DNA of 64,000 nt from an uncultured Acidobacteriota bacterium (GTDB lineage Bacteria; Acidobacteriota; Blastocatellia; RBC074): contig CAWCKY010000001.1 of the NCBI GenBank assembly GCA_963796275.1, positions 896,001-960,000 on the forward strand. The letters are read 5' to 3'. The notes beneath the pieces were generated by a model. That model was not told the DNA's origin. It worked only from the letters and a program-made list of their open reading frames with translations, and made no database searches. How positions within the stretch are numbered: the stretch's first letter is position 1; each line of letters begins with the position of its first letter. The position numbers were made by a program, and so were the translations under genes. Below are positions 12,333 to 26,224 of the stretch, in pieces.

Positions 12333-12363
12333 TAAATTCTCAAATCTCAAATCTCAAATCTCA
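12333..12363. repeat. Heptamer tandem repeat (TCTCAAA)n overlapping the carB 3' end
   Basis: aaattctcaaatctcaaatctcaaatctca. Confidence 0.75.
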
Positions 12364-15300
12364 TATGGTGTTCCTGTAGACTGATTACGCTCAGCTTCTC
12401 ATGCCGCATCGCGGCAATTGCGCTCGCCGCCGCATTGGCTCCCGTCAGCGTTGTGAAAGTGACGACGTTGTACTGCATTGCAGCGCGGCGAATAGCCTTC
12501 TCATCGTAAAAAGACGAACGCCCGAGTGGAGTATTGACGATCAAATCGATCTCATCGCTCTTGATCAGGTCGACGACGTTCGGACGTCCTTCGTTGACCT
12601 TATAAACGCGGTCGCAGGGGACGCCCGATTCATTCAGGAAGCCTGCCGTACCGCGCGTCGCGATGATTTTGAATCCGAGCTCGTGCAAACGCTTGGCTAT
12701 GCGAACTGCGTTCTTCTTGTCATTGTCGTTGACGCTGATGAAAGCGGTGCCTTCGAGCGGAAGGCTGGCGTTCGTCCCCATCTGCGCTTTGGCGAAGGCC
12801 AGGCCGAAACTATCGGCCATTCCCATCACCTCCCCGGTCGACCGCATCTCAGGCCCCAGAACAGGGTCGACTCCCGGGAATTTGTTGAATGGAAAAACCG
12901 GTTCTTTGATGAAGAAGCTGTTGACCTTCAGTTCATCGGGCAACTGGAACTCGCTCAATTTTCGCCCGGTCATCACCAGAGCGGCGATCTTCGCGAGCGG
13001 GACGCCCGTCGCCTTCGAAACGAAAGGTACCGTGCGCGAAGCCCGCGGGTTCACTTCGAGGACATAAACGATGTCATCTTTGATTGCAAATTGAATGTTC
13101 ATCAGCCCGCGTACCTCGAGCGCACTCGCAAGCTGGCGTGTGTACCTGCGCATTGTTTCAACATGTTCGGGCTTGACCATGTATGGCGGCAGCACGCACG
13201 ACGAATCGCCGGAATGAATCCCCGCCTCTTCGATGTGCTCCTGAATGCCCGCGATCACGCATCGCGAGCCGTCGGCGAGCGCGTCGACGTCGACCTCAAA
13301 TGCGTCCTCGAGAAAACGGTCTATCAGCACGGGCTTCTCCGGCGAGGCTTCGACGGCGTTTTTCATGTAGCTTTCCAGGCTCGCTTCGTCGAAGGCGATC
13401 ATCATCGCGCGCCCTCCCAGAACGTAACTCGGACGAACGAGTACTGGATAACCGATCGATGCTGCGACGTGCTTCGCATCCTCGACCGTCACCGCCGTAC
13501 CGTTGACCGGTTGCGGAATATGCAGATCGGCGAGCAGTTTGCCGAAGCGTTTGCGGTCTTCCGCCAGATCTATCGATTCGGGGCTGGTGCCGATGATGGG
13601 CACGCCCGCCTGTTGCAATCGCATCGCGAGATTCAATGGCGTCTGACCGCCGAACTGAACTATGACGCCGTCCGGTCTCTCCAGTTCGACGATGTGCATG
13701 ACGTCTTCAAAAGTTAGGGGCTCAAAGTAGAGACGATCGGATGTGTCGTAATCTGTTGAGACGGTCTCCGGATTGCAGTTGACCATGATGGTCTCGAATC
13801 CGGCATCTTTCAGCGCAAATGATGCGTGACAGCAGCAGTAGTCGAACTCGATCCCCTGGCCGATGCGGTTGGGACCTGAACCGAGTATGGCGATCTTCTT
13901 ACCATCCCTGGGTCCGGCTTCACATTCGCTCTCATAAGTAGAATAGAGGTAGGGAGTGAAAGACTCGAATTCAGCGCCGCAGGTGTCAACCCGCTTATAG
14001 ACCGGTTTGATGCCCTCGGCCTGGCGCCTTGCGCGGACCTGGTCCTCGCCGCATTTGAGCAGGTCTGCCATCCGCACATCGGAGATGCCCATCCGCTTCG
14101 CCTGATAAAGCCGTTCAGCGGAGAGCGATGTCAGGCTCTCCTGCTTAAGATCATTTTGAAAATCGGCGATCTGTTTGAGCTGAGTCAAGAACCACCGATC
14201 GATGCTCGTCAATTCGTAGATTTCATCCAGCGTCCAGCCGCGCTCGAAGGCCGCATTCAAATAATGTATGCGCTCAGCATTGGGGATTATCAGTTTGCGG
14301 CGCAGGGTCTCATCGTCAGGATATCCGGTGAAGGCCGGTCCGCGATTTTCCAATGAGCGCACTCCTTTGAGAAAAGCTTCCTTGAAAGTGCGGCCGATGG
14401 CCATCACCTCGCCCACTGATTTCATCTGCGTACCGAGACTATCTTCGACGCCGGGAAATTTCTCGAACGCCCACTTGGGGATTTTGACCACGATATAGTC
14501 GATCGTCGGTTCGAATGATGCCGGAGTCTTCTTCGTGATGTCGTTCGGGATTTCATCCAGGGTATAACCGACCGCGAGCTTAGCGGCGATCTTCGCGATC
14601 GGAAAGCCCGTGGCTTTTGAAGCCAGGGCCGATGAACGCGACACGCGCGGGTTCATTTCGATGACCCGCAAATCTCCGTTGCGCGGATTCACGGAAAATT
14701 GGATATTAGATCCGCCCGTCTCGACGCCGACTTTGCGAATGATCTTGATGGCGGCGTCGCGCATTATCTGATATTCGCGATCGGTCAGCGTCTGCGCGGG
14801 AGCCACGGTTATCGAGTCGCCGGTGTGCACGCCCATCGCATCGAAGTTTTCGATCGAGCAGATGATGACGACGTTGTCGGCCAGGTCGCGCATCACTTCA
14901 AGCTCGTATTCCTTCCACCCGATGATCGATTCTTCGACCAGTATTTCGCTGATCGGACTGGCTGTGAGACCGCGCTCGGCGATCTCCTCAAGCTCTTCGC
15001 CGTTATAAGCAATGCCGCCGCCGGTGCCGCCGAGCGTGAAGCTCGGCCGGATGATTATCGGGAAGTTGGTCTCTTCGGCGGCCACCAGCGCTTCCGCCAT
15101 GGTGCGGCAGAACCTGGCCTTGGGCATCTGCAACCCTATCTCATCCATCGCTTTTTTGAACAGCAGGCGATCTTCGGCGATTTTGATGGCATCAAGTTTG
15201 GCGCCTATCAATTCGATTCCGTATTTTTCAAGCACGCCTGATTCGGCTAGCTTGACGGTCAGATTCAAAGCGGTCTGTCCACCGACGGTCGGCAGCAGGG

Positions 15301-15553
15301 CGTCTGGCCGTTCGCGTTCGATGATGGCAGTCAGCGTCTCGACTGTAAGCGGTTCGACATAGGTTCGGTCGGCTAATTCCGGATCAGTCATTATCGTGGC
15401 TGGGTTGGAATTGACCAGAACTACATTGAAGCCCTCCTGTCTGAGCGCCTTGCACGCCTGAGTTCCGGAATAATCGAACTCGCAAGCCTGACCGATGACG
15501 ATCGGCCCGGAGCCAATGATGAGAATCTTATTTAGATCAGTTCGTTTGGGCAT
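12347..15553 (-). CDS. carB: Carbamoyl-phosphate synthase large subunit
   Basis: MPKRTD start, [50 protein letters not shown] and a C-terminal MGS domain. Confidence 0.98.
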
Positions 15554-15742: not shown

Positions 15743-17821
15743 TTACACTTCTTCGCGCTTGCGCAATCTCAATTCGGCGAGTTTCCATCGTGGCCAGTTC
15801 GATGTACGGTTGTAACGGCTGTTAGCTTGCGCCAGGCCGTCGACGCGCGTTGAACTGCAATGTGGGCAGATACCGTGTAGACCGCGCGACAACTTTTGAC
15901 AGACATTGCAAACCGTAAATTCCGGTGAAATAGTTAATGCAGATACTTCTGTTCGATGGTATGCATGAGCGATGATCGAAGCCAGATAATCGGATGACGG
16001 GAGTCCGACCCCCAGCCAGAGATCGGTGGTCGCATTCCAGACTTGACCTCCCTGCAGTGCGCCTTCAATTTCGATTTTTTCGGTTGCGCTGATTTCGGTC
16101 GCCACCGGCAGTTTGACGGAGTTGGTGTAGAAGACCTCTTCCTCATCCAGGTTTCCGATCGACTGAGGGACAATCGTGGGACCGAATTTTCTGACATCGA
16201 GGCGCGCGAGCCGGTGCGGAGCAATGATGTCGTGCGACTCTGCGATCAGGAATCGGACTTTATGTTTGGCCGATAGACGTTCGGCTTCTGCGTTGAGATG
16301 AGTCACGACGCGTCTGGCAAAATCACGGCTGGCGAGAGAATCTATGAGCGAAGAGCCGGTCACGGTCTCAGTCATTTCGGCGAGACCGACCGGGCAGATG
16401 GCGTGTGCGGTCCAACTCAGCGGTATGAACGGTTCCTTGTCCGGGCGCATTGCAAGCATTGCCAGTACGCCTGCCTCACCGCGAGCGAGCAGCTTCTCCA
16501 GGAAAACCCTCTTTTCCAGCGACGCCTGGGCCGCAAGTTCGAGAAGAGATGTCAAAAGCTCGAATACCTTTACCTGGTTGAATTCAGAACGGTAGCCGAC
16601 GCGCGGAAGATTTATCGCAACCGATGAGAAGATGGCCGCACGCCACTGCCAGCTATCGCCCGCCCTTTGCAGCTTGTCCGCGCCTACGCCGTAGCGCGCG
16701 GTGAACACCGATTCATCGCTGTTGTTCGGGTTCGTTCTATCGAAAGCCAGCACGACGCCGCCGCGCTCGCTCGCGACGCGGGTTACGAGATCGAGGAAAC
16801 CACGGTTTCCGGGATTGGCTATGAATTGTTCGTTCAAATGGAGGATCGGACGCGGCCCAATGAATGAGAATCCCTGGCCGTCGCCTTCGAGATAGACCTC
16901 GAACAATATTTTGAGGAAAGTGCGCGCGACTTCGCCCACCGAACCGTAGCTGATGCTGAGTTTCTCGCCTCCCGCGCCTACTATCGGTAGCTTGAGGAGG
17001 TAAGAAGGCGCATCCCAATCCAGGTGCAGGTCGCATCGCACCGGTTGCCCCCCGCGCGCGATCGTCGGGGCAGAAAGCTCGAACAATAATTTTTGTGCGA
17101 GCTGCCTCATCTCTCGCTGGTTGAGACCTACAAGCATCGGTGCGAGCGCGAAGTTGACCGAATCCCACGCGAGCGCATCGCTGAAATACCCCTGTAAGGC
17201 CGCGCTCAGCGTGACGAAATGTGACGCCAGCACCTCGGGCCGTTTGGCCGGGCGCGACCCCGCGAATCCACCCGGCAGCTTGATACCGTGGCGTTTGATG
17301 AAATCGATTGTGCCGATCATGTTCGACGGACGGTCGACTTCTCCCAGGTTTTCAATATGAAAATCGCCTTCCAGATGGGCATTCGCCACGGCATCCGAAA
17401 AAACATAGAGCATGGCGAACTCGCGTTTGATCGCTTCAGCCAGAGCGAGGCTCGTGCCCTCAGGCCCGTGCACTACGGCTGATTCGCTCGACACCGATTG
17501 GATGATGCGGTCTACGTCATAGACCGGAACGCCCAATCTCGAGTGCGCGCTGTATTCAGTCATTAATCCGTATTCGAGCAGCTTTGCATCAACGAGCCCG
17601 CGGATCAGCGGCGCGGTCAGCGCCCGGATGCCGGAGCGTTCTATCTGTTCTTTGACCTCGTTAGCGATCTGTTGCGCGATCTCCGGCGCCAGATTGGTTT
17701 CGCGTACAAGAGCATCGGTTATGCGTTGAGGATCGAAACGCGCATATTTCTCATCCGATTGTCTGACGAGCAGTTCGGATTCGGTCAGGGTGATATTTAC
17801 TTTTTCCTGAAGTATATTCAT
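15743..17821 (-). CDS. Class III ribonucleotide reductase (NrdD) homologue with ATP cone and Zn ribbon; catalytic motifs degenerate
   Basis: ATP cone (LTAPLIRGLVDAKL), HGPEGT, AHLEGDFH, ARGGQ, INLPR, YTNS, SPEFTVCNVC...CPHC; the RxxGY radical motif is absent. Confidence 0.85.
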   Translation of the reverse strand: MNILQEKVNITLTESELLVRQSDEKYARFDPQRITDALVRETNLAPEIAQQIANEVKEQIERSGIRALTAPLIRGLVDAKLLEYGLMTEYSAHSRLGVPVYDVDRIIQSVSSESAVVHGPEGTSLALAEAIKREFAMLYVFSDAVANAHLEGDFHIENLGEVDRPSNMIGTIDFIKRHGIKLPGGFAGSRPAKRPEVLASHFVTLSAALQGYFSDALAWDSVNFALAPMLVGLNQREMRQLAQKLLFELSAPTIARGGQPVRCDLHLDWDAPSYLLKLPIVGAGGEKLSISYGSVGEVARTFLKILFEVYLEGDGQGFSFIGPRPILHLNEQFIANPGNRGFLDLVTRVASERGGVVLAFDRTNPNNSDESVFTARYGVGADKLQRAGDSWQWRAAIFSSVAINLPRVGYRSEFNQVKVFELLTSLLELAAQASLEKRVFLEKLLARGEAGVLAMLAMRPDKEPFIPLSWTAHAICPVGLAEMTETVTGSSLIDSLASRDFARRVVTHLNAEAERLSAKHKVRFLIAESHDIIAPHRLARLDVRKFGPTIVPQSIGNLDEEEVFYTNSVKLPVATEISATEKIEIEGALQGGQVWNATTDLWLGVGLPSSDYLASIIAHAYHRTEVSALTISPEFTVCNVCQKLSRGLHGICPHCSSTRVDGLAQANSRYNRTSNWPRWKLAELRLRKREEV

Positions 17822-17876: not shown

Positions 17877-18677
17877 TCACCATTTACAAAAATGATCGAG
17901 CGGCCCGGCTCCGTGCCCCAGCTCCGGCGCAGCTCGTAACGCCGCTTCCAGATATCGCTTGGCGCGGGGGACGGCCTCGGGGATTCCTTCGCCTCGTGCG
18001 AGCAGCGCAGCAATGGCCGATGCGAGCGTGCAGCCAGTGCCGTGCGTATTGCGCGTCGAAATCCGCGGAGCACGAAAGACATGAAACTCGCGCCCGTCAT
18101 CGAGAACATCGATCGCCTCAGCATCGGGCAAGTGACCGCCCTTGACGAGGACCGCGTTTCGATGGGAGCCATGTGATTGCGCCCGGCACAACTCATGCAG
18201 CGCGCGGGCAGCCCGTTTCATCCCATCCGCGTCTTCTACTTTCAAGCCGGTGAGCAATTCAGCCTCCGGGATGTTGGGCGTAATCACATCTGCGAGCGGA
18301 AATATCCGTTCGATCAATATTTTTGTGTCATCAATCAGCTGGTAACCGCTGGTCGACATGATGACCGGGTCCAGTACCACATTTTGCAGAGCGTAGCGTT
18401 CAATCGTCTCAGCCACGACATCAATGATCTCCCGGTTCGGTAGCATCCCGATTTTGACCGCAGCGATCTTGAAGTCACTGATGATCGGATCGATTTGCGC
18501 GCGCAGCACATCAGCAGGATTATGGTATGCGCCGTATACGGCAACTGTATTCTGCGAGGTAATGGAAGTGATCGCCGCCGTGCCGTAGCACCCGAAAGCA
18601 GCGAAGGTTTTGAGATCAGCCAACACCCCCGCCCCGCCCGAAGGATCGAATCCGGCTATTGAAATCAGTGTAAGCAT
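17877..18677 (-). CDS. thiD: Hydroxymethylpyrimidine / phosphomethylpyrimidine kinase
   Basis: IAGFDPSGGAG, VKIGML, VITPNIPEA, KGGHL, NTHGTGCTLASA and GHGAGP motifs. Confidence 0.95.
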   Translation of the reverse strand: MLTLISIAGFDPSGGAGVLADLKTFAAFGCYGTAAITSITSQNTVAVYGAYHNPADVLRAQIDPIISDFKIAAVKIGMLPNREIIDVVAETIERYALQNVVLDPVIMSTSGYQLIDDTKILIERIFPLADVITPNIPEAELLTGLKVEDADGMKRAARALHELCRAQSHGSHRNAVLVKGGHLPDAEAIDVLDDGREFHVFRAPRISTRNTHGTGCTLASAIAALLARGEGIPEAVPRAKRYLEAALRAAPELGHGAGPLDHFCKW

Positions 18678-19298: not shown

Positions 19299-22200
19299 TT
19301 AAGAGTGATTATCGTCGTTTGAGCGAAACACTTTCTTAACTGTGATTGGTGAAGAACCCCCGATCTGACTGATTCTATCAAAAATGTCCGGGCGTATAAG
19401 CAATTCGCACCCTTCCAATCGATGGTGTTCCGAGTTAATCGCGTCATCAAGTGGACGAGTATTCCAATATCGAAGAACAACGGCATCCTGGTTTGAAGAG
19501 TCAAGCAAGGTATATTTTCTTGAGTCCGGATAGGGGCGTAGGTGACAAGTGGCCATAAGCATTGGGTGTAGTACTAGTACAGGGAATAAACCTAATTTAT
19601 CATCAACACGCTCAACACCCACTAAAGGCCCTCTAAAAGAGTAAATCACTTTAGATGTCGGTTCCTGAAGTTGAAACCAAGTTTCCGCCTCCCCAACAGC
19701 AAGTAGGGGTGAATAAGAGTCCGGACTTTGAACTATGTCCGGAAATTGAATATCAGATACCGCCGTCACATAGCCAGCGAAATCGTGCCATCCACGGATG
19801 ATAAGCTCTCGCTCAACATAACCACAGCGAACCCAGCCTGAATATTCATCATCTCCCCTTATAGTCTCTACACCGGCAGTATAATCGTACTGCTCGTGAG
19901 GGAGTGACAAGCGTGGCCTGACAGTCCGACTGTGCCATTTGGCTATATAAAGAGGTAGATTAGGTAGAATGCTCAAAGCAAGTTCAAAGTTCGTTTCAGC
20001 CCTCCACAGCCCTGATCGCCAGAGTGTTTCATCGACGCCATTCAAAATTTCGTTCAAAGCACACTCAAAAACTTCATCTTCCCAGGCAAACATTCTTAAC
20101 TGAGGTAATTTATTGTAAAGCCAACTTGTGGCAGCTTCTTGGCGTAATCTTGATCTTTCTTTGTGAATACTGGAACTCTCCCAAATATAATTGAATCGTT
20201 TCGCTACCAGCGATGGGAATTCAGGCCAGAAACCGGCAATATGTTCAATCCGCTCATTACAGTCCAATGAGAGAACAGCGACTTGTTTTCGCTGACCTAT
20301 GTTCTCACTTATAGAATAGTCAAAGTTTCCCAAAACGGTTATTGTCTCAATGCCAGCACGTTCGAGAAGATTTTTTGCCAGTACCCGAAGTCCAAAAAGT
20401 CCGGACTTTGCAAAGCCTTGAAATTCATTCTGCAGCGCTTTAGTTATTGGGTATGATGTTGGCTCCGCTTCAACTATGACCCGCAAGATTGCAAGGATCG
20501 AACTGAGAGGGGTATCAAGGCTAAAACAATAGCGCAATGGTGCAATGGCTAGAGAAGGGTATAAGCTAAGAATTTTTGCCAAACCAACAAGTGCAGTTGT
20601 TTTTCGCTTCAACTCTGGGTGACTTACTCTAGCCAGAAGAAGGGCAATGAGTGATTCATCAATTGACCAACTAGGCGTCTCCTCAGGCAAATATGTCTCA
20701 ATAATACCGGCATCATGTTCACAATCTGGGAGCCTGTGACGAATAACTTCATATGCCGCTTGCCATACGGAATTTGCGTTCGTGCTGAGTTCAGATATCG
20801 CACAGGCCTCAACCAGATGATGCGTCAATCCACGAACTACCCCTCGCTCATTCAGCCAGTACACAACTTCATCTGCAAAATGTTTTTCAGCATCCTGGGG
20901 TGAGAGAGCAAGAGCATGAGATAGCCAAGGTAGTTGTTCCATATCACCAAGGCATAAGTACCCTCCTCCTCCGCGAGAGTGTGCATATGCTAATATTAGG
21001 GCAAACGAGGCAGCGCCAGTGTACCCGTATCTTTCAAGCCCTTCTGCGAGTATCTTTTAGCGGCTCTGCCTCATGGTAAAAGGCATTTTCTCTGGCGAAG
21101 CATCTTAGCAGGCGCAAGGCATCTTCTCCCCTATTACTCTGGAGCAATTCTAGCAAGCGAAAGCCGATAGCATTAACGATGCGGCTTTGATTCTTATTAT
21201 TCTTGTCGAAGGTTCGCCAAGATGAACGAATAGTTCTCATCGCTTCCAATAGTCCTGCGTTGGCGGGAAAGGTCGGGGAATCTTTAAATAATAGATAAGG
21301 ATCAGATTTTGGAACGTATGCCGTATCTTCCTGTCTTTCTTCCGGATCAATAGGGTCTTCTGCATGCGGCAAGAAAAGTCCGTGAGACCTTGCAAATGTC
21401 TGAAGCTGTTCGTAAGCGGTCGTATTGAACTGCTTGGCATCACCGTGAACCTGAGCGGCAAGTATGCGAAGCGATTGCTCGCCCTCGCTTACACTTATTG
21501 CAAGGATGTGCTCAATGGTATTTAAACGCTGTGCTACATCTTTGATACCATCACCGTTTGTCAAAGTAGATTCCAAGAAAAATATGAGAAAAGGATTGGC
21601 AATGTCTCGTGCATTATCTATTACTTTAATAATACTTTCTTCATACCGCCAATCAATTTGGCCTCCGTCCTTAATAAGAGAGCGCACCATTATGAACGAC
21701 GCTGCTACAATATCAACTTTAGCTATCGCGCCAACCCAGTGGATCGGTGCATACTGTGTTCCTTTGCCATCAGTGTGAGCAACTGCGGCGTTTACTAGAG
21801 GTTGCGTCGCAGCGAGTGCGTTGAGCGCGTGTCGTATGCTGCTTTTACGGAGTATGGGAGCGCTCTCCAACAACTCAAAAATTGTGGCGTCCTTGCGAAA
21901 GCCATAACCGCAAAGTTGCACTGCAACAGATTCCCATAGTTTTTGTGCCTCTTCTTCCTGTCCGCCTGCATTCAAGGCCAGTGCAAGCAACATATCCTGT
22001 TGTGCGAGGGTTTCGTACAACCATCCACGGGATTTATTTTCCTTTATCAGTTGCTTAAATTCAGAAATTAGGCTTGGGTTCAGCTCTGGATTATCTGCAA
22101 ACGGCAACAAGATTTTGATGAAGTCCGCTGGCGTCAATGGGCCGCTCTGAGAATTTTGAAGCGAAACAGTAGTTCCATTCGAAATCTCAACCAAATGTTT

Positions 22201-25200
22201 CAATGCGTCTTCCCAAGCTCTTATATTGCGAAGTAGACTTAGCGCACGAGTGATCGTTTGATGGATGATTCCATGTACAAAATAAAGATCGCAAGCCCTC
22301 GGCTCACCAACAAAGGGACGCGTGTCGCTTGCAAGGTTATTCAAAGCCGCAAGGATATTTACTTCGGCTCCATCTTCATCTAGTTTAGCTCGCACTTCAG
22401 CCTGCGAAAGTGCAACAACAAAACGCAGCCAATTTCTATACCAACCGATTCCTTTGATGCTTGCTAAAACTGACCCAAGAATCTGCGGGTGATATCTCTG
22501 CCGCAATTCTGATACTCTCAACCCAAAGCTTCATTACCCCGACATCAGCCAATACTTTTCCCTTATCAAGTCCGATGTCAATGCCGGATGGATGAGGGTA
22601 ATGTTTGGTCACTTTGTTTGGGTCAGCACCAAGAGTTAAGCATTCAAGAATAAGTTCAGGCGAATCAGTCCCATATAATATTTCTTTAAGAATCTCCTTA
22701 GCCCGTACTACTTCACCATCGGCAAAAAGGGCTCTTGCTAGCTCGGCTTTAACTTTGCCCGCAATCGCCGAAGACAGCTTCGCTTCTTCTAGCAGTCGCA
22801 AAAGGATAGATGAGCCGCCGAACTGTCTCAGACGCTTAAGAATAAGATTTAGGTACTCGCCTGGGAGATTGTCAACACTGCTTAGCCACGTGTTAACGCT
22901 TGGATAAACACTTTCTATGCCCTCAACCCGAAGTGAGCCGTGAAATTCTGCATCAGCAAACTTTATCCAGTCCTCTCTCACTGATTCCCGGATCTCATCT
23001 ATGCTCGACCTTCCATCTACATCTAAGTACTCCTCCCAAGGCGCAACTTGCCCTGCATCATCGCAAAGTGAGCAGAATAATAATCCTACCCACTCTGGAA
23101 ATGTTGGCTTTCCATCGAAAACCAATCGCTCACTTAGCATCTTTGCGCCGAAAAGTGCTGCAAAAGTGCGTCCATATAAATCTAAATCAAGTAACTTTTG
23201 CTCAAAGCACGTCCAACATGAAGAATTTAGTTCAGCCAAACGTGCCAATGCGGCCCAGTCCAATACTTCCGCAGCAATGTAAGTCGCCAGTTTCAAATTT
23301 TCTTCAATTGCGGGTCTCGAAAATCCTGCCTGTACACTACGCGAGACAAAATCCATATTAACGGTTTGTAGCGCTTCTTGATTCTTCCCTGCTCGGCGCA
23401 AACAAGGGATTAGAAAGCGATGCGCTCTTGCATCCGCGAAGATCCCCTTACTCTTAAGCCAAATGATAACCGGCTCAATTATTGCGGCGATTGACCCTCC
23501 CTGATTACGGATACGTTCAGTAATGAACCGCCGGAAACTCTCATGATAAATACGGAACCCACCTTGGGCTGCGGATTGATTAAGAACCGGGCCAAGATAA
23601 ATCAGCGCCTGGGAGAGACGATGGGCAAGATCAAGGCGAATCTCTCTAAGTTCGGTTTCGCTTAACCCAAAATCTACGAGCCCCAGCAACTCCGCTACGA
23701 TACCCGTTGAATTTTCACCTTCAACGGTTCGTAGCAACCAGTCGTAATAGTGTGAAATTGAACCTTCAAGTTGTGGGACTTGTTGCAAAAACTCCTCGGA
23801 GTCAAAAGTTTGATCTTGGAGAAGGCTGGAAAGTATTTGCTTACACAGGAATGTTGCATAAAGTGGGTTGCCTTCTGAACGGTTATACAACTTAGTGAAT
23901 AACTCTTCTGTGGACTTCTTGAACCCTAAATTGTCGAGCGCGGCCATAATGCCGAAGTTGTAGGCGAGCTCTACTACCTCATCATATCCCCACTCCGGCA
24001 TCGTAAGCGTTTCAGCGTTTGCGTATAATGGAGTGAGATGAGCGCCTGGTTGCGATCCAATGACAAGATATACTCCGCGAGGGAGATTGAGTGTGACTAG
24101 TTCTTCAACAATGTCAATTTCACCTGCCGTGAGGTCTTTTACTTCACCAAAAACGCGTGAGATGTGATCTACCCCATCAACAACCAGAATGACTTTATCT
24201 GCAAATCCATGTGTAATGGCATTATTCAACATCATCTCAAGCTCGCGCGGGCCTGCCGAGTAGAGTGGCTGGTGCAGCCCCCGCAATTCCGGACAAGATT
24301 GAATTAAGTCATAAATCAGATTACCGAAAAGGACATTAGATGTAATGCGTCGTTGAACCTGCTCATCACCGGGCTCAAGATAGCAATAGTGTTTGGCGAC
24401 AAGATGCCCGTCATGACTTAGTTCATCGACCAATTCTGTGAGTAGCCAAGATTTCCCAGAGCCTGGTGGGCCGGTGAATATAACTCGCTGAGAATCAATT
24501 TTCTCCCGAAACGCATCAAGTAGAAATTGGCGCTTGATCAGAATGGAATTATCTATCGGAAACTCTTGAGCAATTCGGCCAAAGTCTCTTTGTAATTGCA
24601 GAGCGTTTTCTACATCAGCTTGAGCGAGGGTCTCATGGTTTACTCTGGCACGCTCTGCTCGTTTAATCAGGATTGCAGCTGCGTCAGCAAGATTCCGCCC
24701 GTGATTCGGATAATGTCCAATCCCCACTCCGTCAGCCAAAAGGCGCAATAGCAACTCTTCCAACTGACCTGGACTCCTTAAGTCAAGGGACGCTCGTGGG
24801 CACTCCAATTCGATGACGAGCTTCTTTGAAAAATCCACGAAGTCCTGTCGGTTGATGTCTCTTGCTTTTTCCAATGGTTCCCATAATGCAGATTGCCCTT
24901 CTGGCCAAATCTTATCGGTATTCAGCCGGTAAAGCTTTGTGATATAGCCGTCAAATGAAGGATCAATACTCGACGGTTCGAGTAAGTCTACAAAAGCAAA
25001 ATCTCTCGGGGTACCCATCGATGCGCAAATACGATACTCCTCAACAGTTGACTTACCATCATTGAGTAGACATCGAACTAGATTGTCAATTCTTAGCTTG
25101 CGATTTTCCGTTGTTAAGTCGCTCTGTTCAAAAGTGCGTTGCGAATCTGGAGTAGATTTTATCTGGCGTTTGACGATACTTGAACCATAATGAACCGTGA

Positions 25201-25342
25201 GATCATCAAAGCGGTCTCCCTCAAACCCTTTACGGTCAACCGTAACCGAATCAAACCCTTTCACCAAACCAAGAGCTAGAAAATAAGCAGTGAACAAATC
25301 CTGATAAGCATACCCGTAATGGGCTGCCCTTAAATCACTCAT
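19299..25342 (-). CDS. ~2013-aa nuclease-STAND NTPase-helical repeat protein (Avs/AVAST-like antiphage candidate), interrupted by two +1 frameshifts
   Basis: N-terminal GYAYQD...FDDL...RQIKS (Cap4-like PD-(D/E)xK), Walker A GPPGSGKS, Walker B ILVVDGVDH, GNPLYA, FRIYHESF. ORFs 22436-25342, 21034-22521 and 19299-20942 fuse after removing one base at 22487-22489 (G3) and one at 21055-21058 (T4). Confidence 0.78.
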
Positions 25343-25524: not shown

Positions 25525-25556
25525 TGCCCCGTTGCCCCGTTGTCCCGTTGTCCCGT
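25525..25556. repeat. Octamer tandem repeat (TGYCCCGT)x4 at the thiE stop
   Basis: tgccccgt tgccccgt tgtcccgt tgtcccgt. Confidence 0.8.
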
Positions 25557-26224
25557 CACACCGTGGCTCTTATGATCGTTTCGATGTTGGATTTTAAGCA
25601 TTCCGCATCGGCGAATAGTCGGATTGCCGCAATCCCCGCCGCTCCCCGCCGCAAAGGCTCTTGATAGTTGGTGAGGTCGATGCCGCCCAGAGCCAGGACG
25701 GGGATATTCACTGATCTGCAGATTTCGGCGAAATTTTCGATACCAATCGGTGGCCCATAGGCCCGTTTCGATGGCGTGTCGTAGACCGGTCCGCAGACGA
25801 TGAAATCCGCACCTCCCGCCTCGGCAGTGCTGGCTTCGGCGAGCGAGTGCGTCGAAACGCCGATGATGAAATCATTCAAACCTCGGCGCCGGACAGCTGC
25901 GCGGGCCTCAGCTGCAGGAAACGATAGGGCTGGTAGATGCACGCCATCGGCACCCGCGGCAATCGCGACGTCCATCCGATCGTTCACGAGTACTCGCGCA
26001 CCATGTGGATGTGATGCGGCAACTGCGGCGCGCGCCAGCCGATAGAGCGTTCGCGCATTTAAATCTCGCTCGCGAATTTGAACGAGCTGGCATCCGGCTC
26101 GCGTTGCCTGGCGGATTATGTCGATTTGGGCAGCTTCAGGCTCAGGATTCCCAGGGATTCGGCGGAGCGCCAGGCGGTCGCTTATCAGGTAGAGTAATGG
26201 GCTGGTTTGTGGCAGTCTCGGCAA
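25556..26224 (-). CDS. thiE: Thiamine-phosphate synthase (ThiE/TenI family)
   Basis: LYLISD, VQIRE, VNDRMD, ADGVHL, GVSTHS, GPVYDTPSK and ALGGI motifs. Confidence 0.85.
   Translation of the reverse strand: MPRLPQTSPLLYLISDRLALRRIPGNPEPEAAQIDIIRQATRAGCQLVQIRERDLNARTLYRLARAAVAASHPHGARVLVNDRMDVAIAAGADGVHLPALSFPAAEARAAVRRRGLNDFIIGVSTHSLAEASTAEAGGADFIVCGPVYDTPSKRAYGPPIGIENFAEICRSVNIPVLALGGIDLTNYQEPLRRGAAGIAAIRLFADAECLKSNIETIIRATV

Follow-up and report, generated by a model that had tools for sequence, protein, structure and literature searches.

In the stretch of DNA analysed here (the window, 64,000 nucleotides), the minus-strand nrdD-like gene at 15743..17821 encodes a full-length NrdD-fold protein (P0001) that lacks the residues for radical chemistry. 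The whole protein is under strong purifying selection across most Blastocatellia, a class of soil bacteria. With the radical residues lost and selection this strong, the protein must have a different job. We tentatively favour the view that it descends vertically from a double-Cys NrdD and is functional without radical chemistry, most likely as a nucleotide-binding sensor or regulator. Glycyl-radical enzymes and ribonucleotide reductases (RNRs) are defined by radical chemistry, and a large conserved branch without it is unexpected among them. It also represents a natural experiment on the capacity of the RNR allosteric scaffold in the absence of catalysis.

The nrdD-like gene encodes a complete NrdD-fold protein

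The ORF is intact, begins with an ATG start codon and encodes 692 aa. Its product matched the Pfam NRDD profile (PF13597) with 231.6 bits, over residues 118-688 and profile positions 7-560 of 562. On the NrdD equivalog model TIGR02487 it scored 202.8 bits, which is below the cut-off of 326.35, whereas the canonical controls P0123, P0124 and P0157 were all above it (411.5, 417.5 and 388.4 bits, respectively). No second Pfam or NCBIfam family and no known catalytic motif was matched in the protein. The AlphaFold2 model (pLDDT 89.6, pTM 0.88) was compared with solved structures using Foldseek, and the top PDB matches were all class III RNR NrdD (8p23, 9dca, 4coj and 1h79; TM 0.6-0.75, 13-17% identity). 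A search of the ESM Atlas returned NrdD-family clusters only.

The frame, the Pfam match and the structural matches bear out an earlier note on this DNA, which had described an intact 692-aa NrdD-fold ORF. All of the motifs that it quoted were found at the residues expected: HGPEGT (118-123), DRPSN (163-167), ARGGQ (255-259), ESVFTARY (370-377), INLPR (403-407), AESHDII (527-533), YTNS (565-568), CNVC (638-641), CPHC (652-655) and DGLAQANSRY (661-670).

The nearest canonical representative is P0123 (40% identity), a class III NrdD of the xCCR type, for which the Thermotoga maritima enzyme has been solved (4coj/4u3e). The fold and the order cone-barrel-Zn ribbon-C-terminal hairpin are shared, and ARGGQ, INLPR, YTNS, the Zn-ribbon Cys residues and the C-terminal W..K..EL..R pattern are common to both. 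In contrast, the Blastocatellia protein is without the Gly-Tyr pair, both catalytic Cys residues, the proton-donor Glu region, NxN, HxHD, TPAE and NrdG.

Residues for radical chemistry and substrate binding are replaced

The finger-loop motif is xCCR/MGCR, with the third residue catalytic, according to the available part of Burnim et al. In P. copri NrdD, the available part of the corresponding paper (PMC11226230) locates the second catalytic Cys (Cys171) in the first strand of the barrel and assigns substrate-holding roles to the NxN flap and the HxHD triphosphate motif. Alignment to real NrdD sequences upheld, column by column, the claim of the earlier note that every radical-chemistry motif is replaced: P0123 carries DRPYC, SECCRL, EQTPAES and VDGITRITGYF, where the query has DRPSN, ESVFTAR, AESHDII and VDGLAQANSRY.

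In the ex-glycyl-radical loop (DGLAQANSRY; 15812..15841, minus strand) Gly has given way to Ser (in most relatives to Asn) and Tyr to Arg. The alignment with P0123 is gap-free from VDG to the conserved W...K..EL, and the loop is modelled as a hairpin tip with a pLDDT of about 90. The radical column, within Q-A-N-S-R of the query, contains Gly in 0/120 listed close homologues, compared to 15/15 canonical sequences. Gly is also missing from 16 class-level genome copies and from P0121 and P0122. The sole Gly within residues 656-692 is G662 of the VDG triplet.

The ex-finger loop (ESVFTARY; 16691..16714, minus strand) is without the thiyl Cys, and its two CC columns read xF, with no Cys, in all 120 listed clade sequences. 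The first-strand catalytic Cys site, within DRPSN (17321..17335, minus strand), is occupied by Asn167 in the query and by Thr, Ala, Ser, Met or Asn in 120/120 clade members. Neither a radical Gly nor a thiyl Cys was found elsewhere in the protein, whose only Cys residues are C263, C476 and the four of the Zn ribbon, with none between 264 and 475.

The substrate-binding motifs have been altered as well. Both Asn residues of the ex-NxN flap (SESAVV, residues 112-117; 17471..17488, minus strand) are gone; the query columns read S-A-gap and the pair is present in 0/120 listed close homologues. The ex-HxHD triphosphate motif, aligned to 8p23, reads HIEN (residues 155-158; 17348..17359, minus strand). 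AESHD (residues 527-531; 16229..16243, minus strand) stands in place of EQTPA(ES), TPAES having become ESHDI, which remodels the phosphate-binding loop and the proton-donor Glu region. NxN, HxHD and TPAE are all altered alike across the clade. In the canonical set (n=15), C, xC, GY and PAE were present in 15/15 sequences and NxN in 14/15.

The genome carries neither an activase nor a second NrdD

The earlier note had pointed out the lack of an adjacent nrdG. No nrdG adjoins the nrdD-like gene, and the genome-wide check likewise gave no NrdG above cut-off and no canonical nrdD. The best match in the genome to NrdG (TIGR02491) reached 59.9 bits (cut-off 126.1) and that to NrdG2 (TIGR02495) 67.9 bits (cut-off 131.15); NrdG2 was above cut-off in 0/151 Blastocatellia genomes. 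The nrdD-like gene is the sole NRDD-family match in its genome. With the Gly-Tyr pair, both Cys residues, the proton-donor Glu region and the NTP motifs gone, and no activase encoded, class III ribonucleotide reduction is impossible.

A separate RNR gene of the Ribonuc_red_lgC type, without NrdB, is the only true RNR candidate in the genome. It should be noted that this large-subunit gene is likely frameshifted in the assembly.

A second match was obtained in five of the 151 genomes of the class. Three of these (G050, G061 and G126) contain genes split over contig ends; in G132 the additional match is short and partial, and in G100 there is a pair of pieces of 38% identity.

These data bear on the idea that the protein is still an RNR, with a radical from an unusual source, or a decoy pairing with a canonical NrdD, which we consider very improbable. 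The automatic annotation as an anaerobic RNR speaks in its favour, as does the coexistence of a paralogue from Hydrogenedentota (described below) with a canonical NrdD in genome G151. However, the radical Gly, any Cys in the interval 264-475 and the three substrate motifs are all missing, no activase was found, and a separate RNR without NrdB is encoded. Among the 151 genomes of the class that were searched, the pieces in G100 are the only possible second NrdD-family gene. As its genome has no NrdG and no second NrdD, a decoy partnership with a true NrdD is excluded here, and the decoy or regulatory heterodimer put forward in the earlier note was rejected for this genome.

The protein is widespread in Blastocatellia and under purifying selection

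The distribution of the nrdD-like gene was surveyed in 151 Blastocatellia genomes by a homology search (E<=1e-20). The gene was found, in single copy, in 89/151 genomes, including all 38 of its own family; by family, the counts were 38/38 (f1), 13/14 (f4) and 21/34 (f6). NrdB was present in 49/151 genomes (f1 11/38, f4 13/14, f6 0/34).

Nei-Gojobori dN/dS values of 0.03-0.2 were obtained for 13 pairs with dS<1, to which the estimate was restricted; pairs involving the window copy were saturated (dS 1.5-3.2 or undefined). The values were similar in the cone (0.00-0.21), the barrel, the Zn/ex-glycyl domain, the ex-Gly loop and the finger loop. In the case of pairs with L026 the C-terminal dN/dS is inflated, that copy matching residues 1-659 only. 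A Gly/Cys-less clade under purifying selection therefore exists, in which 120/120 listed homologues share the losses, and the same results support the proposal of the earlier note that the NrdD-fold protein has been repurposed and maintained.

The likely frameshift elsewhere in the assembly (in the RNR large-subunit gene) might lend some credit to the idea that a canonical nrdD is decaying here or has been altered by sequencing error, but this explanation has practically no chance of being correct. The reading frame is unbroken over all 692 codons, the listed homologues, which come from many sources, all carry these substitutions, the dN/dS values are low, and every genome of the family has a copy. 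The comparative data refute this explanation.

The allosteric scaffold appears to be retained

The N-terminal part of the protein (residues 18-85; 17567..17770, minus strand) is a variant ATP-cone-like domain, matching Pfam ATP-cone (PF03477) with 27.2 bits at a cut-off of 25.8. The match is equally weak in radical-bearing relatives (21.0 bits in P0123 and 24.1 bits in P0157). The statement of the earlier note that the ATP cone is kept thus holds for a variant cone-like domain only, at most a putative ATP site.

The Zn ribbon CxxC...CxxC (C638, C641, C652, C655; 15857..15910, minus strand) is 100% conserved in 138 clade sequences. ARGGQ (17045..17059, minus strand) corresponds to loop 2 (SRGGNQVV) of the NrdD from P. 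copri and is nearly invariant in the clade (R256 0.99, G257 1.0, Q259 0.99). Of 96 columns conserved at >=85% in 55 canonical NrdDs, 59 are kept, including P191/A192 of SRPAKR, Q240/Q243, R256-G257-Q259, R394, N404, K437, R537, D542, YTNS, the four Zn Cys and W676/K680/E683/L684/R687. The mapping of the s-site is at motif level only, against a structure at 16% identity, and it is incomplete, as Glu290 and Phe412 of the P. copri paper fell on non-matching letters in the 8p23 chain.

A homodimer model of residues 100-560 scored 0.46, compared to 0.00 for the best of three controls, a result that speaks for likeness only, since solved NrdD dimers may have been memorised. The mark for this score is reached by 20/30 solved same-chain pairs and 1/23 solved single chains. 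At least 85% of contacts are shared between model runs, with a partner pLDDT of at least 78, and the predicted interface (117-132, 204-212, 247-257 and 451-455) includes ARGGQ. An NrdD-type dimer may have been retained, in which the Zn-ribbon domain would still sit inside the barrel and the allosteric elements would lie at the interface.

In the mechanism that we propose, the ancestor would have been a double-Cys (xCCR, thioredoxin-type) class III RNR, passed on by vertical descent. It would have been turned into an allosteric module in which the NrdD dimer is kept, the C-terminal Zn-ribbon domain still lies inside the barrel, and the s-site hairpin region, SRPAKR and loop-2 ARGGQ are preserved at the dimer interface. 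The Arg669-Asp531 pair may stand in for the canonical Tyr-Glu contact. Nucleotide binding is predicted, and the output would be nucleotide sensing or regulation rather than reduction. With all three substrate motifs gone, the s-site and the cone are the places left for any nucleotide. A (d)NTP sensor, one of the roles suggested in the earlier note, would be possible in view of the ARGGQ motif, the s-site hairpin region and the predicted dimer interface that the protein keeps. Several points weigh against a sensor: the cone is barely above the Pfam cut-off, and neither a class-wide neighbour nor a conserved NrdR-box-like element accompanies the gene.

The proposed nucleotide-sensing logic, together with a Zn ribbon and a cone-type domain, is in common with NrdR, a repressor of nrd genes built from a Zn ribbon and an ATP-cone, but NrdR has about 150 aa and no barrel. 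Among RNR subunits that have lost reductase chemistry and been kept for other roles are the catalytically dead R1 homologues of betaherpesviruses and the R2-like ligand-binding oxidases. These derive from class I (viral, or di-metal oxidase) and are unrelated to the glycyl-radical class III scaffold.

The inactive betaherpesvirus R1 homologues, which serve as protein-binding factors, are a precedent for a structural pseudoenzyme that would act as a scaffold or partner (e.g. of a class II/I RNR, NrdR or ThiD) and would bind no small molecule itself. Such a role would agree with the loss of all catalytic and substrate-binding motifs from a protein that keeps its fold, Zn ribbon and predicted dimer. 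We nevertheless find it improbable: no partner gene adjoins across families, presence does not track the RNR type of the genome (in f6, NrdB is found in none of the genomes and the nrdD-like gene in 21 of 34), and the loop-2 and s-site elements, needless for a scaffold, have been retained.

A related non-radical paralogue occurs in Hydrogenedentota

In the phylogenetic tree, the Blastocatellia clade lies within a larger non-radical group, which is itself nested among double-Cys NrdDs. SH-like support was 0.84 at the node joining the Blastocatellia and Hydrogenedentota clades and 0.95 for the wider group. The Hydrogenedentota member of this group is an NrdD-like paralogue of about 760 aa (P0168 group), found in 39/51 sampled genomes of the phylum. 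Like the Blastocatellia protein, it has no Cys at the first-strand or finger position, and it carries an annotation as anaerobic RNR. Unlike the Blastocatellia protein, it has no Zn ribbon and no C-terminal domain, the tip of its finger loop is deleted, ARGGQ is not conserved, only 28 of the 96 canonical columns are kept, and it carries an extra canonical ATP-cone (85.9 bits). In genome G151 the paralogue is found beside a true NrdD (630 bits), and nrdR lies directly upstream of it in 3/18 loci.

A bolder reading, and to our mind a rather doubtful one, would unite the Blastocatellia protein and the Hydrogenedentota paralogue in one large, old, undescribed family that arose from a glycyl-radical RNR and abandoned radical chemistry. 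It would have been retooled, in aerobes and anaerobes, into a sensor or regulator of the nucleotide pool built on RNR allostery, or else into the first non-radical enzyme on the barrel of glycyl-radical enzymes.

The replaced positions are conserved in their own right

Within the Blastocatellia clade, the residues that took the place of the canonical ones are themselves highly conserved (F373 100%, R669 100%, D531 98%, S399 98%, E157 97%, N158 89%), and two Cys residues in barrel strands are clade-specific (C263 95%, C476 92-98%). Judged from the sequences, such conservation would fit a plugged cavity no better than a new site for ligand binding or catalysis.

The main rival of the sensor reading is therefore a neofunctionalised enzyme or ligand binder, in which a rebuilt barrel cavity would accommodate another small molecule or perform non-radical chemistry. 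We regard this as possible though unlikely, and give the same weight to the cavity residues proposed for it: Glu157, Asn158, Arg262, Cys263, Cys476, Asp531, Asp600 and Arg669. Across 122 clade sequences the substituted positions show 84-100% fixation, dN/dS is equally low in the finger loop, the ex-Gly loop and the remainder of the protein, and the two clade-specific Cys residues lie in barrel strands. However, no known catalytic motif or additional family was recognised, and the residues are not all class-wide: outside the host's own family, Ala or His stands at position 669, and positions 530-532 vary. The absence of the finger loop and of the entire C-terminal domain from the Hydrogenedentota clade also argues against one shared catalytic site.

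Previous mentions and annotation

Chloracidobacterium, also a member of Blastocatellia, has an NrdD-like gene without activase beside NrdAB or NrdJ, listed in a table row as 'NrdD-like paralog, no NrdG' (PMC12816986). In the available part of that source the entry consists of the table row alone, in which radical residues, conservation, distribution and function are not stated. This row is the only printed mention found; NrdD homologues without the radical Gly were not described in the article texts covered, which included a 2026 GRE review and Burnim et al.

Public records label both the Blastocatellia and the Hydrogenedentota proteins as 'anaerobic ribonucleoside-triphosphate reductase'. Owing to such annotation, metabolic reconstructions of Acidobacteriota and Hydrogenedentota may wrongly infer an oxygen-independent dNTP route. 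The protein is a tractable subject: it looks soluble, insensitivity to oxygen is expected, and the class includes cultured carriers.

Gene neighbourhood and regulation

The thiD gene (phosphomethylpyrimidine kinase; 17877..18677, minus strand; Pfam Phos_pyr_kin 293 bits) lies 56 nt upstream of the nrdD-like gene on the same strand, and carB (12347..15553, minus strand), a neighbour at the family level only, lies 190 nt downstream. In the own family, the C-terminus of ThiD is encoded just upstream in 27/28 loci, and carB is located downstream in 4/5 wider loci. The thiD and nrdD-like genes are probably co-transcribed in this family. The tight pairing with thiD would suit a metabolic enzyme, which is a further point for the new-enzyme reading.

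Neither thiD nor carB was found next to the nrdD-like gene in any of 15 loci from other families. In 6/6 loci of another family purN is divergent from it, and no neighbour is conserved class-wide. The link to carB and nucleobase catabolism drawn in the earlier note consequently stands for the own family and fails outside it. As neighbours, thiD and carB (own family) and purN (another family) are loose pointers to the metabolism of nucleotides or pyrimidine precursors.

A search of the whole window against Rfam identified no RNA family, and no TPP riboswitch was detected upstream of thiD. A promoter/terminator scan gave 8 promoter-like sites, compared to 5.0 expected. Upstream of the nrdD-like gene, only a weak half-match to an NrdR-box-like element was present, and it is not conserved in relatives.

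The genome encodes its own NrdR at C6:1281873-1281998. Two NrdR-box-like palindromic elements, ~30 bp apart, were observed upstream of its RNR gene.

NRDD family membership and loss of the active site

The nrdD-like gene (15743-17821, minus strand) is an intact ORF of 692 residues. Its product matches the Pfam NRDD family over nearly its full length (231.6 bits; residues 118-688, profile positions 7-560 of 562), and the ATP-cone match at its N-terminus is weak (27.2 bits vs a cut-off of 25.8). The protein falls below the cut-off of every curated NCBIfam NrdD equivalog, the best being TIGR02487 with 202.8 bits vs 326.35, a model passed by three radical-bearing control relatives (411.5, 417.5 and 388.4 bits). 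An AlphaFold2 model built from a 70-sequence alignment was confident (mean pLDDT 89.6, pTM 0.88). Its best matches among solved structures were class III RNRs only, from P. copri, S. thermophilus, T. maritima and phage T4 (TM-scores 0.6-0.75, identity 13-17%), with class I RNRs and other glycyl-radical enzymes ranking far below. The protein belongs to the NRDD homology family, but not to the functional class III RNRs.

The nearest canonical (radical-bearing) representative, P0123, is 40% identical (E 4e-159). Relative to it, DRPYC is replaced by DRPSN, SECCRL by ESVFTAR, EQTPAES by AESHDII and VDGITRITGYF by VDGLAQANSRY; the residue mapping in the earlier note, according to which the radical Gly, the thiyl Cys, DRPYC and EQTPAES are all replaced, is thus borne out by real sequences. 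From VDG through the conserved W...K..EL the C-terminal alignment is gap-free, which places Ser668 opposite the radical Gly and Arg669 opposite the following Tyr. HMMER and MAFFT set the finger loop two residues apart in register, which is immaterial because the six Cys of the protein (C263, C476 and four in the Zn ribbon) include none between residues 264 and 475.

According to the accessible part of the P. copri NrdD study (PMC11226230), the NxN flap touches the substrate gamma-phosphate and base, the triphosphate is held by the HxHD motif and loop 577-581, and Tyr712, next after the radical Gly, bonds Glu581 of that loop. Column comparison and a profile alignment to the solved P. copri chain (8p23) gave S-A-gap at NxN, H-I-E-N at HxHD and (E)SHD at TPAE. 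With all three motifs altered, the substrate site has been dismantled together with the radical relay, and the protein is incapable of class III ribonucleotide reduction.

Activase, partner NrdD and the resident RNR

The best NrdG score in the genome was 59.9 vs a cut-off of 126.1, and NrdG2 exceeded its cut-off in none of 151 Blastocatellia genomes. No activase was found in these searches, and that the protein is nonetheless a cryptic RNR, reducing ribonucleotides by some hidden route, is highly improbable.

The nrdD-like gene is the sole NRDD-family match in its own 9.46-Mb genome. Two matches were found in five of the 151 class genomes: in G050, G061 and G126 they represent one gene broken across contig ends, in G132 the additional match is partial (128 residues), and G100 carries two pieces at 38% identity. 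An RNR large subunit of the Ribonuc_red_lgC type is encoded on another contig of the genome and NrdB is absent, so the working RNR is probably class II. (NrdB occurs in 49 of the 151 genomes, and its presence does not track the nrdD-like gene.) With no second NrdD and a separate RNR, the previously suggested decoy heterodimer with a true NrdD fails for this genome.

The only Ribonuc_red_lgC gene of this genome (G000:C6:432138-433644; loci L002 and L003) lies in two overlapping frames covering profile positions 1-132 and 166-523. It is a single ORF of 812-845 aa in all five relatives checked, and the local copy is likely frameshifted, either genuinely or through faulty assembly. About 250-300 nt upstream of the RNR ORF (L003) are two AT-rich, palindrome-like elements, ACAACAGATTGTTG and ACAACTCTATATCTAGTG, which are spaced ~30 bp apart and resemble tandem NrdR boxes. 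NrdR is encoded at C6:1281873-1281998.

Conservation and selection

Of 8000 candidates scored in a word-indexed homologue search, 430 proteins reached E<=0.001. Identity is 64-100% and length ~690 aa among the 120 listed, most of which come from assemblies of Blastocatellia or Acidobacteriota; the named entries are labelled 'anaerobic ribonucleoside-triphosphate reductase'. The first-strand Cys, finger Cys, radical Gly and NxN pair are absent in all 120, with replacements of the same kind, a pattern that is next to inconceivable as an artefact. Across the class, the gene is present in 89 of the 151 genomes sampled (a set including G130, unpublished and without a match), in 38/38 of its own family and in 38 of 54 genera, at identities down to 45%. 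The radical Gly is also absent in 16 distant copies fetched with their flanks, which read AGDRY, TNRY, TYAF, THHY or GLSY.

Pairs involving the window's own copy were saturated; in the 13 pairs with dS<1, dN/dS (Nei-Gojobori) was 0.03-0.2, and values were equally low for the barrel, the cone, the Zn/ex-glycyl domain, the ex-Gly loop and the finger loop. The homologue check proposed earlier has therefore revealed a Gly/Cys-less clade under purifying selection. Decay of a canonical nrdD is ruled out by the intact ORF, the losses throughout the listed homologues, the spread over the class and these dN/dS values. The nrdD-like protein is functional.

Full-text literature searches, confined to main texts, yielded no description of Gly-less or Cys-less NrdD homologues, nor did term look-ups in the portions available of Burnim et al. 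(preprint) and a 2026 glycyl-radical-enzyme review (PMC13450708). The only printed mention found was a table row, 'NrdD-like paralog, no NrdG', for Chloracidobacterium (PMC12816986), a genus of the same class as the organism studied here.

Retained scaffold and proposed function

Of 96 columns conserved at >=85% in 55 canonical NrdDs, 59 are still kept in the clade, including the four Zn Cys, YTNS, the Asn of INLPR, R394, K437, R537 and D542. The retention of W676, K680, E683, L684 and R687 at the C-terminus suggests that this domain still docks in the barrel. Also kept are the Pro-Ala of SRPAKR, adjoining the s-site hairpin, Q240 and Q243, and R256, G257 and Q259 of ARGGQ. The numbering in the accessible part of PMC11226230, together with a count along the chain of 8p23, identifies ARGGQ as loop 2 (SRGGNQVV in P. 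copri, native 304-311), which in that enzyme relays the specificity signal from the dimer interface; Glu290 and Phe412, named in the same source, fell on non-matching letters in this count, which leaves the s-site map incomplete.

A homodimer model of residues 100-560 scored 0.46 (best of three controls, 0.00), a pass that shows likeness rather than binding because NrdD dimers have already been solved; 20 of 30 proteins solved as same-chain pairs attained this mark, as did 1 of 23 single-chain structures. Contact agreement between runs was at least 85% and partner pLDDT at least 78. The predicted interface is made up of helix 117-132, residues 204-212, the segment 247-257 with loop 2, and residues 451-455.

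The NrdD dimer and its allosteric interface elements would thus have been kept and the substrate site abolished, and on this basis we tentatively favour a nucleotide-binding sensor or regulator derived from the allosteric scaffold of RNR. The main rival, that the remodelled cavity now houses a new site for ligand binding or catalysis, is possible but rather less probable; it draws on the replacement residues themselves being fixed at 84-100% in the clade. A radical-independent tyrosine-kinase activity claimed for E. coli NrdD (PMC11140677, accessible in part) is a lead here, not support. That the protein acts as a scaffold without any ligand is unlikely. In the favoured sensor or regulator, the C-terminal hairpin may be locked in place by the conserved Arg669 and Asp531, which occupy the positions of the canonical Tyr-Glu bond between radical loop and phosphate loop.

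Gene neighbourhood

The gene is flanked on the same minus strand by thiD, 56 nt upstream, and carB, 190 nt downstream. The ThiD C-terminus is encoded immediately upstream in 27 of the 28 parsable own-family loci (30 in total) and carB lies downstream in four of five with wide flanks; both are absent nearby in 15 loci of other families. In another Blastocatellia family (L036, L043-L047), a divergent formyltransferase (purN-like) gene precedes the nrdD-like gene and a same-strand DUF2227 'metal-binding' gene follows it in 6/6 loci. A conserved AAAAC(A)AGTATCTTT element directly precedes the start codon in four of them. Since thiD and carB are confined to the own family and the neighbours differ elsewhere, there is no class-wide operon partner; nucleotide-precursor genes recur loosely. 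The downstream amidohydrolase and CN-hydrolase genes, regarded in the earlier note as nucleobase catabolism neighbours, are not conserved (0/20 loci).

A low-GC stretch (19299-25342; 0.46-0.49 vs ~0.54-0.58 around) separates thiD from thiE (25556-26224). It encodes two large ORFs (547 and 495 aa) without Pfam or PADLOC match, plus a NACHT/STAND NTPase of 968 aa that weakly matches Avs1b (35.9 bits). The stretch resembles a defence-type island inserted between the thiamine genes.

Relatives and phylogeny

An exhaustive, profile-free search of 50%-identity representatives identified 1832 relatives at E<=0.001, the best 150 of which were examined in strict columns. All three radical residues are present in 50, and roughly twelve further canonical sequences are interrupted, probably by inteins. 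In another 48 the first-strand Cys, the tip of the finger and the C-terminal domain are all missing, and ~20 others lack two or three radical residues. Ten representatives (P0141, P0172, P0175, P0176, P0187, P0226, P0227, P0240, P0244 and P0258) have both catalytic Cys and no recognisable Gly-radical loop at the end; several are long and probably contain inteins, and the ten may represent split genes, contigs cut short or a further variant.

A tree of 148 sequences (FastTree, LG) was rooted on the single-Cys MGCR type; methionine-containing sequences are apparently ancestral according to the available part of Burnim et al. (preprint). The non-radical sequences fall together in a single 76-leaf group (SH-like support 0.95), nested in the double-Cys type beside the canonical P0123/P0124 group (support 0.96), a placement in a quick tree of fast-evolving lineages that may reflect long-branch attraction. 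The 48-member branch is a ~760-aa protein, mostly from Candidatus Hydrogenedentota and present in 39 of the 51 sampled genomes of the phylum. This paralogue has an extra canonical ATP-cone (85.9 bits) and no Zn ribbon or glycyl domain, and genome G151, which carries it at L055, encodes a canonical NrdD (630 bits) elsewhere. In 3 of 18 loci (L056, L065 and L069), nrdR is located directly upstream of the paralogue.
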